This document shows, piece by piece, positions 8,254 to 32,397 of a stretch of DNA of 37,008 nt. The DNA comes from an uncultured Gammaproteobacteria bacterium (lineage in GTDB: Bacteria > Patescibacteriota > Patescibacteriia > Magasanikbacterales > GWA2-37-8). Location: assembly GCA_964531745.1 (NCBI GenBank), contig CAZHFX010000002.1, positions 17,151-54,158 on the forward strand, written 5' to 3'. The notes under the pieces were generated by a model. The model made no database searches. It saw nothing but the letters and a program-made list of their open reading frames with translations, and was not told where the DNA came from. Made by a program: the position numbers and the translations under genes. Each line of letters starts with the position of its first letter. Position 1 is the first letter of the stretch.

Positions 8254-9468
8254 ATGCCGCAGGTAAAACCAGAAATTGAAGCTTTTGCCAAAATTAAAGT
8301 GGTTGGCGTGGGCGGGAGCGGCGGCGCGGCCATCAACCGAATGATGGCGAATAAAATTCGCGGTGTTGATTTTATCGCCATGAATACCGATGTGCAGGCG
8401 CTCCACTACAACAGCGCGCCGCATAAAATTCATATTGGCAAAACAGTGACCAAAGGCCTCGGCGCCGGCATGGATCGGGAGGTCGGCCGCAAAGCGGCCG
8501 AGGAATCGCAAAATGAAATCCGCGAAGCTCTTAAGGAAACCGATATGGTGTTTATCACTTGCGGGCTGGGCGGAGGCACCGGTTCGGGGGCGGCGCCGAT
8601 TGTGGCCGAGGTGGCGAAAGAGCTGGGCGCTTTGACGGTGGCGGTGGTAACCAAGCCCTTTTCTTTTGAGGGGCCGCAACGCGGCTCTATCGCCGATAAA
8701 GCGTGGGAGGAGCTGGTAAAGAATGTGGATACTATTATTACTATCCCGAACGATCGGGTACTTCAGGTGATTGATAAAAAAACCACTTTGCTTGACGCGT
8801 TCAAAATTGTTGATGATATTTTACGTCAAGGCGTGCAAGGAATTTCCGAGTTGATCACCATCCCCGGGCTTATCAACGTTGATTTTGCCGACGTGAAAAC
8901 TATTATGCGCGACACCGGTTCAGCGCTGATGGGCATTGGCGTCGGCACCGGCGAGAGCCGGGCGGTGGAAGCCGCCAAAGCGGCCGTGGCCAGCCCTCTG
9001 CTGGAACTATCCATTGACGGCGCGCACGGCATTCTTTTCACCATCACCGGCGGTCCGGATTTGACCATGAACGAAGTAACCGACGCGGCCAAACTGATCA
9101 CCGGTTCAGCCGCGGCTGACGCCAAAATTATTTTTGGCGCCATTATTGATGAAAGCATGACCGGCAGTATGCGCATTAATGTGGTGGCCACCGGCTTTGA
9201 CGATCGCCGCCCGAGCACATTGAAAGAAGACACGGCGCCGGCGCAGAATTTCTTCTCCGGCGGCAAATATATGCCGAGCACGTTTTTGCGCAAAGCGCAG
9301 AAGGAAGAGGAAGAGGAAGAAAAAAAATTCAAGAATTTTACTCAACGGAATATTCCGGCCGCCGCGCCGAACCCGAGCGAAGCGAATAAATTAGCCAAAG
9401 ATCAAGATGCGGGTCTGGAAGAAGATCCGGAAATGCCGGCTTTCCTTCGTAAAAGAATGGGTCTCTAG
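8254..9468 (+). CDS. ftsZ: Cell division GTPase FtsZ
   Basis: GGGTGSG tubulin signature, NVDFAD, and C-terminal peptide PAFLRK. Confidence 0.99.
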   Translation: MPQVKPEIEAFAKIKVVGVGGSGGAAINRMMANKIRGVDFIAMNTDVQALHYNSAPHKIHIGKTVTKGLGAGMDREVGRKAAEESQNEIREALKETDMVFITCGLGGGTGSGAAPIVAEVAKELGALTVAVVTKPFSFEGPQRGSIADKAWEELVKNVDTIITIPNDRVLQVIDKKTTLLDAFKIVDDILRQGVQGISELITIPGLINVDFADVKTIMRDTGSALMGIGVGTGESRAVEAAKAAVASPLLELSIDGAHGILFTITGGPDLTMNEVTDAAKLITGSAAADAKIIFGAIIDESMTGSMRINVVATGFDDRRPSTLKEDTAPAQNFFSGGKYMPSTFLRKAQKEEEEEEKKFKNFTQRNIPAAAPNPSEANKLAKDQDAGLEEDPEMPAFLRKRMGL

Positions 9469-22338: not shown

Positions 22339-22458
22339 ATGTCGTTAAATCACTCCAACAATCTTCGCTGGGATAAAAAGGCAAAGAGCGCCTTTACTTT
22401 GACTTTGGCGGTAATTGCGCGCCCGTGCGGGTTTTGGGGTGAATATAAACGAAGATAG
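22339..22458 (+). CDS. Putative 39-aa leader peptide (MSLNHSNNLRWDKKAKSAFTLTLAVIARPCGFWGEYKRR)
   Basis: Short ORF just after the promoter; its 3' end overlaps the predicted antiterminator stem. Confidence 0.5.
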   Translation: MSLNHSNNLRWDKKAKSAFTLTLAVIARPCGFWGEYKRR

Positions 22459-22513
22459 ATAATGGATAAATTTCGTTTATAAGAACCTCGAACCTAAACT
22501 CTCGGGGTTTTTT
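22429..22513 (+). terminator. Attenuator: intrinsic terminator with mutually exclusive antiterminator
   Basis: Terminator is GAACCTCGA (22483-91)/TCGGGGTTT (22502-10) plus a T-run. Antiterminator pairs 22429-40 with 22485-95 and TATAAACGAA (22444-53) with TTCGTTTATA (22472-81). Confidence 0.6.
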
Positions 22514-22520
22514 AATGAGT

Positions 22521-22569
22521 CCGCCAGACTAGCAAATTGCCTTTTTAAGGCGGTTTGCTAGTCTGGCGG
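22521..22569. repeat. 23-bp inverted repeat (REP-like CCGCC...GGCGG hairpin)
   Basis: CCGCCAGACTAGCAAATTGCCTT / AAGGCGGTTTGCTAGTCTGGCGG; the two deviations are both G-U compatible. Confidence 0.85.
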
Positions 22570-22644
22570 GAATGCCAGCGACAACCAGTCTCACTGTCGC
22601 AGAGGGCGGCGCTGACGATTGGTTTCCTCCAAGGAGGAAGTTAC

Positions 22645-23088
22645 ATGGAGAACGCGGTGGCGAGAAAACAGCAGGAGAAGCTGGTTGCAGTGCACCCGGA
22701 GCTCAAAAGGCACTACAAGCCGAGCGGGCGCCTGTCGCACTTTGACGGGTGCGAGGACGATCTGGTCGGCCGCGTGCAGACGGCGCTCCAGAGCGGCGCC
22801 CCCCATTGCCGCGGTAGGTTCCCCGGGAGTCTGATCGTGGAGATCGCCCCGCAGGGAGTGTACTGCAAAGTCGCACCGGAGGGGCGCACCCGCGAAGGCT
22901 ACGAGAAGCTGGAGGCCAGGCGCGCCGAGGCGGTGCTCCACACCAAGGAGCTCGTGGCGGAGCAGACCGCAAGGAGGAGCGGCGACAAGCGCCGGCGCCG
23001 TATCCGCCTGCTGGGTGACAACGTCCGGTACTTCCTGGTGGCGGTGCACGGCTTCTCCTCCGACCGCCAGCCCGGCCGCGACGCCTAG
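22645..23088 (+). CDS. GC-rich 147-aa hypothetical protein, possibly a divergent DUF3228-like protein
   Basis: Strong AAGGAGG SD at 22631-37 and strong GC3 bias. The pattern SHFDG..DDL...G..PGSLIV.I.P.G...K..A...VL....L...FLVAVH resembles DUF3228 proteins (from recall). Confidence 0.7.
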   Translation: MENAVARKQQEKLVAVHPELKRHYKPSGRLSHFDGCEDDLVGRVQTALQSGAPHCRGRFPGSLIVEIAPQGVYCKVAPEGRTREGYEKLEARRAEAVLHTKELVAEQTARRSGDKRRRRIRLLGDNVRYFLVAVHGFSSDRQPGRDA

Positions 23089-23183
23089 TCCGCGCGCTCG
23101 CGTTGCTCTACCTGACCCGGAGACGGGTGAATGCACAGTCGGCTGTGACAAACAGCGGACAATGCTCACCCTCTCCGGCAATC

Positions 23184-23248
23184 TAGTCTCTCCCGCTGAT
23201 AGCGGGACTGATGAGTCCACAACTGTTTTGACTAAGGACGAAAGACTA
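23184..23248 (+). ncRNA. Type III hammerhead ribozyme; predicted cleavage after C23190 (CUC)
   Basis: Stem III TAGTC (23184-88)/GACTA (23244-48); UH at 23189-90; stem I TCCCGCT/AGCGGGA; core CTGATGA (23208-14); stem II GTCC/GGAC; GAAA (23240-43). All core nucleotides are present. Confidence 0.92.
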
Positions 23249-23252
23249 CAAC

Positions 23253-23288
23253 AAAAAACTCTCTCAACGTATGCGGGAGAGTTTTTTT
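23253..23288 (+). terminator. Intrinsic terminator (possibly bidirectional)
   Basis: AAAAAACTCTCTC-9nt-GGGAGAGTTTTTTT. Confidence 0.8.
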
Positions 23289-29708: not shown

Positions 29709-30068
29709 TTAAGCTAAGGGTTTTGTGCTGGTATCGGTTGCCGTGTTGGTTGTTGAAGTGTCAGGCGGTAAAATTTTAGGGACAGACTTCGGGTTGGGGG
29801 AGAACAGCGGATTTTTGATTTTCCACTTATCCACAAATTGTCCGATTCCCTTTTGGGCCAGTTTATTGCGGACGGTAGTGTGGTGTTGCGACCATTTAAC
29901 CAGGCTTTCAAAGTTTATTTTGTATCGTCCGGCTACTATGACATAGGTCACTTCTTGAGCTTGAATAGCGCGGCGGACGGTTTGGGTGTTAACCCCAAAA
30001 AGGCGAGCGGCCTCTGAAATTGAGACCCGGACCATTTCTTTAGATTTGTTTATTTTAACGTCATCCAT
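29709..30068 (-). CDS. Excisionase/MerR-like (HTH_17-type) DNA-binding protein
   Basis: SISEAARLFGVNTQTVRRAI...GRYKI winged HTH. The ORF-track TTG start at 30125 coincides with the -35 box, so ATG 30068 (or 30035) is preferred. Confidence 0.8.
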   Translation of the reverse strand: MDDVKINKSKEMVRVSISEAARLFGVNTQTVRRAIQAQEVTYVIVAGRYKINFESLVKWSQHHTTVRNKLAQKGIGQFVDKWKIKNPLFSPNPKSVPKILPPDTSTTNTATDTSTKPLA

Positions 30069-30073
30069 ATCTA

Positions 30074-30264
30074 TTTGTATAGAGTAGTCTAGACAAAGAC
30101 TAGCATATATTCTTTTGTTTGTCAAGATTTTATGGGCTGGTTTTCATTTTTTTGTATACACTAGTGTATACAAATTTTAGTTTTTTACTTATAAAATAGG
30201 CCTTTTCCTCGTCGGAGTGCCATTATTCAAGTTTGTATACACTAGTGTATACAAACTTGAATAA
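30074..30264. repeat. Three copies of the 24-bp palindrome TTTGTATACACTAGTGTATACAAA
   Basis: 30074-97 (20/24 match), 30151-74 (perfect), and 30232-55 (perfect, inside a 42-bp perfect palindrome at 30223-30264). Confidence 0.95.
30097..30125 (-). promoter_or_regulatory. Promoter of HTH gene: TTGACA-N17-TAGTCT (minus strand)
   Basis: Plus-strand TGTCAA at 30120-25 and AGACTA at 30097-30102. Confidence 0.65.
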
Positions 30265-30486
30265 CTTTGCTTGTTGCTTTTCCCACGGCAAGTCGTGTCG
30301 GGGGGGGGCGGTCGCCTACGGCGACCTCAAGATGACAGCGAGCAAAATCTTATGTATGGTCGTTTAGGACGCTGTTTATTTGACCTGTCAGTGATTTTTT
30401 GTTATTCTGTATGTTGTAGTTTACTTGTTTTGGTAGGCATTTTTTAGTTAAAGTAGTGTTACTTTAAAGGAAATTGGAAATGGCAG

Positions 30487-30514
30487 TGTAACACTTTTAT
30501 TTTTTTTACGTCTA
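30487..30514 (+). promoter_or_regulatory. ECF-sigma autoregulatory promoter TGTAAC-N16-CGTC
   Basis: Matches the SigX/SigW-type consensus, and the predicted TSS falls at about the ATG (30520). A sigma70-type TTGACC-N17-TATTCT also lies at 30380-30408. Confidence 0.75.
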
Positions 30515-30519
30515 CTAGA

Positions 30520-31077
30520 ATGTCCGGTACTTTACAAGAGAAAATTCTCCTGTTCAAATTACAAATAGAGCAAGATCCGGAAGCCTTCGCCGCTCTCTAT
30601 GATATATATGTAAAACGAATTTACCGGTTTGTTTATTTTAAGGTTTCGTCGCACGAGGAAGCGGAAGACATAACGTCGGAAGTATTTCTTAAAGCGTGGC
30701 ATTTTTTACAGGAAAAAAAAGAAGTGAAAAGTTTTTCTGGTCTGCTCTATCGGGTCGCGCGTAATTGTATTATTGATTTGTATAGAAGAAAGGCGGCCAA
30801 ACCAGAAACAGCATTGTCTAATTTTTTGGAAGAGGCGCTAGAAATAGGCGATAGAGGACAATGGTACGCCGATGTTGGAGGAAAAATGGAAGCACAGCAA
30901 ATCATTGAAGTTTTAAAGAAATTGAAACAAGAATATCGGGAAGTGGTAACGTTGCGCTATGTTGATGAACTGGAAATAGATGAAATCGCGGAAATAGTGG
31001 GAAAAACAAAAATGGCGGTGCGTGTCACCCTTCACCGAGCGATAAAAAAAATTCGGGAAATTTTACCCGAAAATTAA
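30520..31077 (+). CDS. ECF RNA polymerase sigma factor
   Basis: AFAALY..Y...IYRFV, AEDITSEVFLKAW, LYRVARN..ID..R; region 4 EIAEIVGKT..AVRVTLHRA. Confidence 0.95.
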   Translation: MSGTLQEKILLFKLQIEQDPEAFAALYDIYVKRIYRFVYFKVSSHEEAEDITSEVFLKAWHFLQEKKEVKSFSGLLYRVARNCIIDLYRRKAAKPETALSNFLEEALEIGDRGQWYADVGGKMEAQQIIEVLKKLKQEYREVVTLRYVDELEIDEIAEIVGKTKMAVRVTLHRAIKKIREILPEN

Positions 31078-31080
31078 TCT

Positions 31081-32397
31081 ATGCGGGAACGCGTTATTGA
31101 ACAATTGAAACGGTTGCAACACGGAAGTGTAAACCCCCAAACCGATTGGGAGGCGCGGAATCGCGCTTTGCTTTTGTCCCAGATAAAAAATACCCTGCCG
31201 GAGAGTTTGTCAATTAAATCGACAGAAAGAATGTGGGCTGGCTTGTCTATTTTTATTCCGAAGCCGCTAGTATATAATGTGGTGCGCCCGGTGGCGATGT
31301 TGCTTATTGTCGTCTTGGTGGCCACCACCGCCTATTCCGGCACGGTGAAGGCATCTTATGAAACGCTTCCGGGTGATTGGCTCTATCCAGCTAAACGGGG
31401 CGTGGAAAAAACCCAAGCGGCCGTGCTTTCGGTAATCGGCAATGCAACTTCGCAGACAAAGTTGCATGTGGAGTTCGCGAAACGGCGCGCGGCGGAAACT
31501 AAACAAATAATTAATAGCACTGATCCTGACAAAGCGGCGAAAGTCGGAGAAACCGTGGCCGATTTGAAAGATGAGATGAAAAGCATTAATTCCAAGCTTG
31601 ATGAGAATAAAAGCGCTAATGTAAATTTTCAAGCCACGGTAGCGAAAGATATAAAACAGAACACCGAGCAAATTAAAAATGTCTTGCAAGACGCTAAAGA
31701 TAATTTGGCCCTGACTCCGAATGTGGAGAATAAAGTTCTTTCTCAAGAGATCAGCGAAACTAAAGATTTGGTAAAGGATGTTTCGGTGAAGGCGATGGAA
31801 GTGCTCGTAACCAAGCATCTTGAAGGCGATACGAGTGTTTCTAAAGAGGAAGTAAAAAAAGAAATCAGCAGCGCCCTGCAAACGTCGGTGGATGATGTTG
31901 GCGTGTCCAAACAAAATGTAGACGGCGCCAAGATTATTTTAGAGAGCATGAGAGGCGCGGTTCAAGATTTGAAGAGTGAAGCTCAAAAACAAAATAATAT
32001 TGATTTAGTATCAAGCACCAAAGCTTTTTCTGATAAAGTTTCTACCGCGGCCAACCAAACAGTAGCGGCGGTTTTAAAGACCGAAGCGGTGTCGGTGGAG
32101 CTGGACAAAAAGGTTAATGAAGCTAACGATTTTATGAATAAAGATGATTTGGCGCAGGCTGTGGATAAGGTGCGGGAAGCCAACCAAGCCTCCAAAGATG
32201 CGGAGAAGATATCTGATACGGCGATTGAAAAAACCCAGACATTTTTGCCGATCGTGCAGGTAATTAAGGACAGCTCCGCGGCAACCACCACTGTTCAAAG
32301 CATTGGCAAAGATTTGCCCCCGCTGATCGTGACGACCACGCCGGTTTCCGCTGTTAGCGCGACTCCCGTTGTGATTCCGATTTTATTAAAAAATTAA
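31081..32397 (+). CDS. Putative anti-sigma factor with DUF5667-like domain
   Basis: Starts 3 nt after the sigma gene; short cytoplasmic N-terminus, one TM, TLPGDWLYPAKRGVE...FAKRRAAE motif, then a coiled coil. Confidence 0.75.
   Translation: MRERVIEQLKRLQHGSVNPQTDWEARNRALLLSQIKNTLPESLSIKSTERMWAGLSIFIPKPLVYNVVRPVAMLLIVVLVATTAYSGTVKASYETLPGDWLYPAKRGVEKTQAAVLSVIGNATSQTKLHVEFAKRRAAETKQIINSTDPDKAAKVGETVADLKDEMKSINSKLDENKSANVNFQATVAKDIKQNTEQIKNVLQDAKDNLALTPNVENKVLSQEISETKDLVKDVSVKAMEVLVTKHLEGDTSVSKEEVKKEISSALQTSVDDVGVSKQNVDGAKIILESMRGAVQDLKSEAQKQNNIDLVSSTKAFSDKVSTAANQTVAAVLKTEAVSVELDKKVNEANDFMNKDDLAQAVDKVREANQASKDAEKISDTAIEKTQTFLPIVQVIKDSSAATTTVQSIGKDLPPLIVTTTPVSAVSATPVVIPILLKN

Follow-up and report, generated by a model that had tools for sequence, protein, structure and literature searches.

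A type III hammerhead ribozyme between a hairpin and a terminator in the 3' untranslated region of an orphan gene of a Patescibacteria genome

The ribozyme element and its Rfam score

We analysed a stretch of 37,008 nucleotides (nt), called the window below, from NCBI GenBank assembly GCA_964531745.1 (contig CAZHFX010000002.1, positions 17,151 to 54,158 of the forward strand), a record titled uncultured Gammaproteobacteria bacterium whose GTDB lineage runs through Patescibacteriota and Magasanikbacterales to GWA2-37-8. The genome comprises 842,508 bases in 53 contigs and is estimated to be 95% complete; sampled genomes of the same phylum range from 0.4 to 2.2 Mb. At 23184-23248 on the plus strand, within an orphan gene's 3' untranslated region (UTR), lies a hammerhead ribozyme motif that is flanked by a rod-like hairpin on its 5' side and an intrinsic terminator on its 3' side. 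Reading of the sequence gave a complete type III hammerhead, in which no core position is missing and each of the three stems pairs perfectly. Its parts are as follows.

23184-23189, plus strand: 5' strand of stem III, TAGTCT (positions 16.6-16.1), pairing with AGACTA at 23243-23248 over 6 base pairs (bp)
23190, plus strand: C17, with self-cleavage predicted 3' of this base; position from the RF00008 alignment
23191-23197 and 23201-23207, plus strand: stem I hairpin, TCCCGCT/AGCGGGA, 7 bp and perfect, with the 3-nt loop GAT; from sequence and folding
23208-23214, plus strand: catalytic core C3 to A9, CTGATGA; from sequence and the RF00008 alignment
23215-23218 and 23236-23239, plus strand: stem II, GTCC/GGAC, including the pair G10.1-C11.1, with a 17-nt loop
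23240-23248, plus strand: GAAA (G12, A13, A14 and A15.1), then the rest of the 3' strand of stem III; A15.1 is A23243 and its partner U16.1 is U23189

The heptamer at 23208-23214 reads as C3 U4 G5 A6 N7 G8 A9, and GAAA at 23240-23243 together with the U at 23189 provides G12 A13 A14 and the A15.1-U16.1 pair. Position 17 is C23190 and thus not G. Stems I and II are closed by loops and stem III is open, which is the type III topology, and covariation supports stems I and III. Judged by its sequence, the element has the core positions and the helices of a type III hammerhead, and among the features read from sequence it falls short solely on the curated Rfam score. The sequence-only reading, an earlier interpretation of this DNA, had called a complete type III hammerhead with cleavage predicted after 23190; both calls held, since the Rfam family RF00008 aligns over the full length with the core and the three stems at these coordinates, and C23190 falls on position 17 of that alignment.

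The same reading had proposed a check against the Rfam hammerhead models, and here the outcome was divided. In a permissive scan of 231 nt against all families, RF00008 (Hammerhead_3, clan CL00010) aligned end to end with 30.9 bits and an E-value of 4.6e-5, and across the whole source genome the same match had an E-value of 4.0e-5; the gathering score of 48.5 bits was not reached. A default scan of the window at gathering thresholds therefore listed only a tRNA and not the hammerhead. The low score is explained by a 16-nt insertion in the 17-nt loop II, and the gathering score, being set by curators, does not itself describe structure. These results indicate, on sequence grounds, a real motif that is unlikely to have arisen by chance, although a lone match below threshold falls short of proof.

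A covariance model, R1, was built from an alignment of 30 copies of the element from the same family of genomes. In the source genome it gave two matches, the window copy with 71.5 bits and a second copy with 53.7 bits. A weak R1 match at 31167-31233 of the window (minus strand; 11.8 bits, E-value 0.34) was taken as noise. Among 21 copies with a long loop II from 20 family loci, none reached the Rfam gathering score, and three short-loop relatives among about 40 R1 matches in 15 loci, from records with Candidate Phyla Radiation (CPR) titles, exceeded it with 49.1-49.7 bits. The hammerhead set is therefore continuous with RF00008.

Family members, covariation and distribution

The second copy came from a BLAST search of the region against its own genome, in which it appeared with 82% identity where contig C32 ends (9189-9251, minus strand; locus L003, 1494-1556). 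In stem I it carries a compensatory change from C-G to A-T, and in stem II C-G is replaced by U-G. The contig ends 2 nt before position 17, so the 5' strand of stem III is cut short, and the one 16.2-15.2 position that can be seen has G opposite G. A small hairpin after its GAAA, GTCAA/TTGAC, was considered as a closed stem III and treated as coincidental, since no U-H cleavage site would remain. Downstream of this copy come TTGACA and TATTAT spaced by 18 nt, a small membrane open reading frame (ORF) and then an ORF that, judged by eye, is a candidate metal-binding (HMA-like) membrane protein.

A search pattern consisting of the core and stem II only was run on 100 genomes of the same family. 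It found 31 sites in 17 of them, and the reversed-pattern control found none. All 30 distinct copies that were extracted have a 17-nt hairpin, stem I, directly 5' of CTGATGA, and all 30 have U16.1, a position 17 other than G and a complementary stem III, none of which is encoded in the pattern. Position 17 is C in 28 copies, U in one, A in one and G in none, and the U16.1-A15.1 pair is present in every copy. Two further loop positions that the pattern leaves free are also invariant, namely the A before GGAC (A23235 in the window) and the U at alignment column 16, where loop I starts. In type III hammerheads, a tertiary contact between loops I and II is required if cleavage is to be fast at physiological Mg2+.

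Covariation was assessed on this 30-copy alignment with the hammerhead structure imposed. Paired bases occupied 94.1% of cells, compared with 70.0 ± 1.4% in shuffles, a level that none of 500 shuffles reached, and with 27-48% when the 3' partners were slid; because the copies are kin, the shuffle statistics overstate independence. Cells changed on both sides numbered 130 versus 40.7 in shuffles, and the covariation score was 0.632 versus 0.160. Changes on both sides were found in 5 of the 7 pairs of stem I, in which 98.6% of cells are paired, and in 5 of the 6 pairs of stem III; the pattern itself fixed stem II and the core, which hence give no independent support.

With R1, 43 matches were found in 25 of the 100 family genomes, with up to 5 copies per genome. 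On a wider scale, 185,579 species genomes were scanned with a pattern, which matched at least 120 stretches and supplied loci from named genome records; in these, R1 gave at least 106 matches in at least 80 loci. Among the 80 loci listed, 54 have titles of Patescibacteria type (Saccharibacteria, Magasanik-, Woese-, Shapiro-, Taylor-, Dojka-, Paceibacteria and others), 20 carry the names of other taxa (13 of these being metagenome-assembled genomes titled 'uncultured Gammaproteobacteria') and 6 say merely 'bacterium'; these proportions give no more than an indication. Among the records listed, those titled Saccharibacteria are all metagenome-assembled genomes. When the window's phylum was sampled evenly, the stricter sequence pattern occurred in 5 of 400 other genomes, 4 of them from one family. 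The hammerhead set is apparently concentrated in Patescibacteria with tiny genomes.

Two single loci stood out among the matches. In genome G300, which belongs to another family of the phylum, the copy at L039 1476-1546 has a stem I identical to that of the window (TCCCGCT...AGCGGGA) and a nearly identical stem III, which may reflect conservation or transfer. In genome G054, the family match at L064 1501-1558 has the core changes CTAATGA and GAAT and is probably an inactive relic.

The host transcript, its ortholog and the recurrent layout

The features that surround the ribozyme in the window are listed below.

22521-22569, plus strand: 5'-UTR inverted repeat with 16-bp arms, CCGCCAGACTAGCAAA / TTTGCTAGTCTGGCGG, ahead of the gene that carries the ribozyme; found as an opposite-strand self-match in BLAST
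22645-23088, plus strand: orphan ORF of 147 amino acids (aa), with the ribozyme in its 3' UTR and AGGAGG at 22632-22637
23117-23178, plus strand: long rod-shaped hairpin of the 3' UTR, separated by 5 nt from stem III and by 12 nt from the cleavage site downstream
23253-23288, plus strand: intrinsic terminator, a 13-bp hairpin at 23253-23287 with a 9-nt loop and seven T at 23282-23288; from folding

The 147-aa ORF has about 70% G+C in a genome of about 50%. No Pfam family was found for it, and among 5.8 billion proteins there were only three matches, with identities of 98%, 58% and 56%, the first of which is probably the product of this very ORF. Of the 99 other genomes of the family, 3 gave weak homologs in a profile search. 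In one of these, G005, the homolog heads a unit of two genes, which is again followed by a hairpin and a hammerhead. In JGI metagenome contigs, 465 pattern matches were obtained for homologs of the window ORF and none was confirmed. A reading of the G+C-rich block upstream of the ribozyme as structured non-coding RNA was rejected for the window on account of the ORF with its AGGAGG and the protein homologs of 56-58% identity.

The 102-nt 3' UTR folds with -45.2 kcal/mol, a z-score of -4.55 against dinucleotide shuffles. Downstream of the ribozyme, folding bore out the terminator that the sequence-only reading had placed directly after it: a 13-bp, G+C-containing hairpin is followed immediately by a U-tract (TTTTTTT, 23282-23288), as in intrinsic terminators. 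It went unlisted in a simple consensus scan for terminators, which accepts loops of 3-8 nt only; the loop here has 9.

The genus is represented by one further genome, G051, where R1 matches in the same slot; the flanks there are 72-76% identical to the window on both the glycosyltransferase side and the EamA side. Its 3' UTR is conserved from about window position 23105 on, with rod hairpin, hammerhead and terminator in the same positions. The rod hairpin carries two compensatory changes, GGGTGA/TCACCC to GGGCGA/TCGCCC and CCGGAGA/TCTCCGG to CCGGAGG/CCTCCGG, and the closing pair of stem I is U-G in G051 and U-A in the window. Loop II of the ortholog (L061 1501-1609) is an unrelated 56 nt rich in ACGAAA-like repeats. 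The 5'-UTR inverted repeat is also kept, with one compensatory change from T-A to A-T; with this repeat conserved and the rod at the other end, the mRNA would therefore bear stable hairpins at both ends. The repeat shares TAGTCT with stem III and was considered as a second or trans cleavage site, which was rejected since nothing there complements stem I and the hexamer is lost in G051.

Between these conserved structures, the ORF in the G051 slot differs from that of the window and is likewise G+C-rich. No homology between the two ORFs was detected by BLASTP (E-value 0.29), and neither blastn nor tblastx gave a significant match; a global DNA alignment scored merely z 2.1 above shuffles. Further upstream, a 39-codon ORF (MSLNHS...EYKRR, window 22339-22458) is conserved in G051, and at 22487-22515 of the window a small hairpin and a terminator-like hairpin with a T-run lie just upstream of the 5' inverted repeat.

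The layout of the locus recurs. In a census of 144 distinct hammerheads, 120 of which are flanked by 520 nt or more on either side, the longest ORF at -400 to -150 lay on the same strand as the ribozyme in 72 of the 120, on the opposite strand in 33 and was absent in 15, ORF calls being noisy in G+C-rich DNA. The downstream ORF showed no preference of orientation (50, 45 and 25 of 120). From the stop codon to stem III the median distance was 84 nt (interquartile range 68-120), and in only 2 of the 72 did the ribozyme lie inside the ORF. For 35 of 43 copies, predicted folds of the 70 nt upstream, read by eye, contained a hairpin that ended no more than 6 nt from stem III. When 40 nt were tested more strictly (free energy of -12 kcal/mol or lower, end at most 6 nt away), 19 of 44 copies were positive versus 59 of 792 random windows from the same loci (Mann-Whitney p = 7e-8). 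A terminator followed in 30 of 120 by a crude test, and other copies are followed by a promoter-like TTCTTTACA/TTGACA motif.

The 400-600 nt upstream are generally G+C-richer than the flanks. No single protein family was found upstream of all hammerheads, the upstream ORFs being heterogeneous and mostly orphan: 8 of 10 upstream proteins had no Pfam family, and the other two were a CMAS-type methyltransferase and an S9 peptidase. Among the matches listed, several genomes hold arrays with up to six ribozymes in 8 kb and small ORFs between them. Loci L134, L080, L123 and L099, titled Taylorbacteria, Patescibacteria or Paceibacteria, each hold 3-6 type III hammerheads within 8 kb, and the arrays of L134 and L080 come after proteins with similar N-termini (MFEKYLKEIGL... 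and MLEKYLREIGL...). One record with a Saccharibacteria title has, at L107 1501-1725 (minus strand), a match of 66.4 bits to an Rfam group I intron, next to tRNA matches.

The neighbours of the locus in the window are FtsA, FtsZ, pyruvate kinase, SHMT, ThiE, MetK, a glycosyltransferase, an EamA transporter and a tRNA, and the window holds neither phage genes nor any for an integrase, a transposase or a reverse transcriptase. Positions 30001-31000 have 37.8% G+C against about 50% around them.

A proposed 3'-end device and the alternatives

The motif is complete, it belongs to a family whose stems covary, and both its synteny with a congener and the architecture around it recur as described above. 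From these observations we consider it probable, with moderate confidence, that the layout of gene, about 80 nt, hairpin, hammerhead and terminator or promoter provides an mRNA 3' end that is made by the ribozyme and capped by the hairpin, and that shields the gene from whatever transcription comes next. A hammerhead cut 3' of C17 leaves a 2',3'-cyclic phosphate on the upstream product and a 5'-OH on the downstream product. The ribozyme would fold while the 3' UTR is being transcribed and cut itself after C23190. What the mRNA would then retain is the very stable rod (23117-23178), followed by 12 nt of tail with the cyclic phosphate, an end expected to resist 3' exonucleases and tailing, and a 5'-OH fragment of about 96 nt, comprising the ribozyme body and the intrinsic terminator, would be released and discarded. 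In copies that lack a terminator, the same cut would part the gene from the next transcription unit. We infer both the cleavage and its stabilising or insulating role from the sequence and its predicted structure.

The separation of mRNA and terminator with these two kinds of end had been anticipated by the sequence-only reading, and as a deduction from hammerhead chemistry it holds; its figure of about 98 nt for the 3' product was about right, the distance from 23191 to the U-tract being about 96 nt. That reading overlooked that the element has a family and that a conserved hairpin adjoins the ribozyme on its 5' side, and with this hairpin in place the likely consequence of losing the terminator changes. 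For bacterial hammerheads in general, processing into single-gene mRNAs of differing stability has been proposed (PMC3088659, PMC6765202). Our reading of the hammerhead as a maker of 3' ends agrees with these proposals, to which the consistent placement of the hairpin adds a new supporting detail.

Several observations weigh against this interpretation. The window copy lies below the curated RF00008 score, and the unconstrained minimum free energy fold of the 70-nt element is an alternative one, at -18.9 kcal/mol versus -18.8 for the active secondary structure. The pattern-fixed stem II and core and the kinship of the copies limit the covariation statistics, as noted with them. Of the 100 family genomes, 75 have no R1 match, and the element is therefore dispensable. 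In 33 of 120 copies the longest upstream ORF is on the opposite strand, although some of these may be spurious ORFs in G+C-rich DNA, and the crude test detected a terminator in only 30 of 120. The reading also leaves a redundancy, since a terminator hairpin by itself would already protect the 3' end.

That the motif is a chance likeness, or a relic whose cleavage activity is gone, would be in keeping with the sub-threshold Rfam score and with the altered core of at least one family match (the CTAATGA and GAAT copy at L064). The core of the window copy is intact at every position, its E-value is 4e-5 per genome, the family covaries and a syntenic ortholog exists, all of which make this explanation highly improbable. 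Just as improbable is a switch in loop II. The sequence-only reading had pointed to GACTA at 23230-23234, a duplicate of part of the stem III 3' strand, and suggested that it competes for TAGTC and turns cleavage off. The duplicate is indeed there, and since it would be transcribed before the true 3' strand, a transient kinetic trap is conceivable. However, the 5-mer of the stem III 3' strand recurs in loop II in 1 of 44 copies, that of the window alone, against 0.58 expected from loop shuffles, which is why we rejected a decoy as a family trait, and it is absent from the syntenic G051 ortholog. The decoy helix moreover crosses stem II, which must therefore open, and the best decoy fold reaches -13.8 kcal/mol, some 5 weaker than the active fold at -18.8.

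The released fragment of about 96 nt might instead act as a small RNA. It is structured and ends in the terminator hairpin, and a 5'-OH end would evade decay that depends on a 5'-monophosphate. There is little sequence conservation in the family beyond the core and the stems, and many copies have no terminator, a promoter-like site or the next gene following directly, so we regard a small-RNA function as very unlikely.

More weight, though still on the unlikely side, goes to the idea that the hairpin and hammerhead mark exchangeable gene cassettes or are the relic of a mobile element, with the ribozyme serving the element's own RNA processing. Copies are spread unevenly over the genomes, several to some of them, the cargo genes exceed their flanks in G+C and are mostly orphan, and the window and G051 hold non-homologous ORFs in one slot between the conserved 5' hairpin and the 3' module. 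In three genomes of another genus (G013, G015 and G012; loci L072, L073 and L074), an island between secE-nusG-rplK and gyrB is mosaic: each island has three hammerheads and the flanks are 78-87% identical, and the homology within consists mostly of stretches of 60-250 nt, with 71-95% identity, at or just upstream of the hammerheads. Published bacterial hammerheads often lie in prophages (PMC3088659). Against this stand the housekeeping neighbours and the lack of integrase, transposase, reverse transcriptase and phage genes in the window, and the synteny of the module between congeners. No terminal repeats or target duplications were seen, without a systematic search for them, and an orphan ORF that diverges fast could look as if it had been replaced. 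The non-homologous ORFs of the congeners and the confinement of secE-gyrB homology to the hammerheads nevertheless suggest a ribozyme-bounded cassette system in CPR/Patescibacteria. In such a system, which we put forward only as a rather improbable speculation, the conserved 5' hairpin and the 3' hairpin-hammerhead would delimit swappable G+C-rich orphan cassettes, and the ribozyme would be both the maker of the transcript end and a boundary for swapping, duplication and loss.

Relation to known systems and significance

The element shares with RF00008 the core (CUGAUGA, GAA, A15.1-U16.1, H17 and G10.1-C11.1) and a junction that is open at stem III; it differs in its 17-nt loop II, in the position-conserved 5' hairpin and in its place in a chromosomal 3' UTR of a tiny-genome bacterium. 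With two kinds of engineered part it has in common that a self-cleaving RNA and a hairpin define a clean transcript end and decouple neighbouring parts, whereas the window module is natural. One of these is RiboJ, a synthetic hammerhead-plus-hairpin insulator that stands in the 5' UTR with its hairpin 3' of the ribozyme; the window module, in contrast, stands in the 3' UTR, and its hairpin is on the 5' side and stays on the mRNA. The other comprises twister ribozymes in bacterial 3' UTRs, used as reporter constructs, as cited in PMC6765202.

The element most resembles the clustered prophage hammerheads with single genes between them (Perreault et al. 2011, PMC3088659), but its own context is chromosomal and not phage. 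As described in that paper, those hammerheads likewise lie between varied genes, often in series, and were proposed to cut long transcripts to gene length; the locus in the window differs in that it has no phage genes nearby, and all copies found here are type III. An adjacent 5' hairpin and a frequent terminator, as seen here, found no mention for the prophage hammerheads in the passages of the paper that were consulted.

According to a 2019 review (PMC6765202), the biological role of bacterial hammerheads is largely elusive. No literature linking hammerheads with the CPR or Patescibacteria was found in a search that was incomplete and is no proof that such a link is unpublished. The ribozyme class is already known; what is new here is the size of the set, its apparent concentration in Patescibacteria and the hairpin-ribozyme-terminator layout. 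The locus is chemically ordinary, yet it leads to many more type III hammerheads, most of which the Rfam cut-off misses, and the layout predicts an mRNA end that would be made by cleavage, capped by a hairpin and finished with a cyclic phosphate. If this is true, reduced genomes would use a ribozyme as a routine device for making 3' ends and insulating operons.

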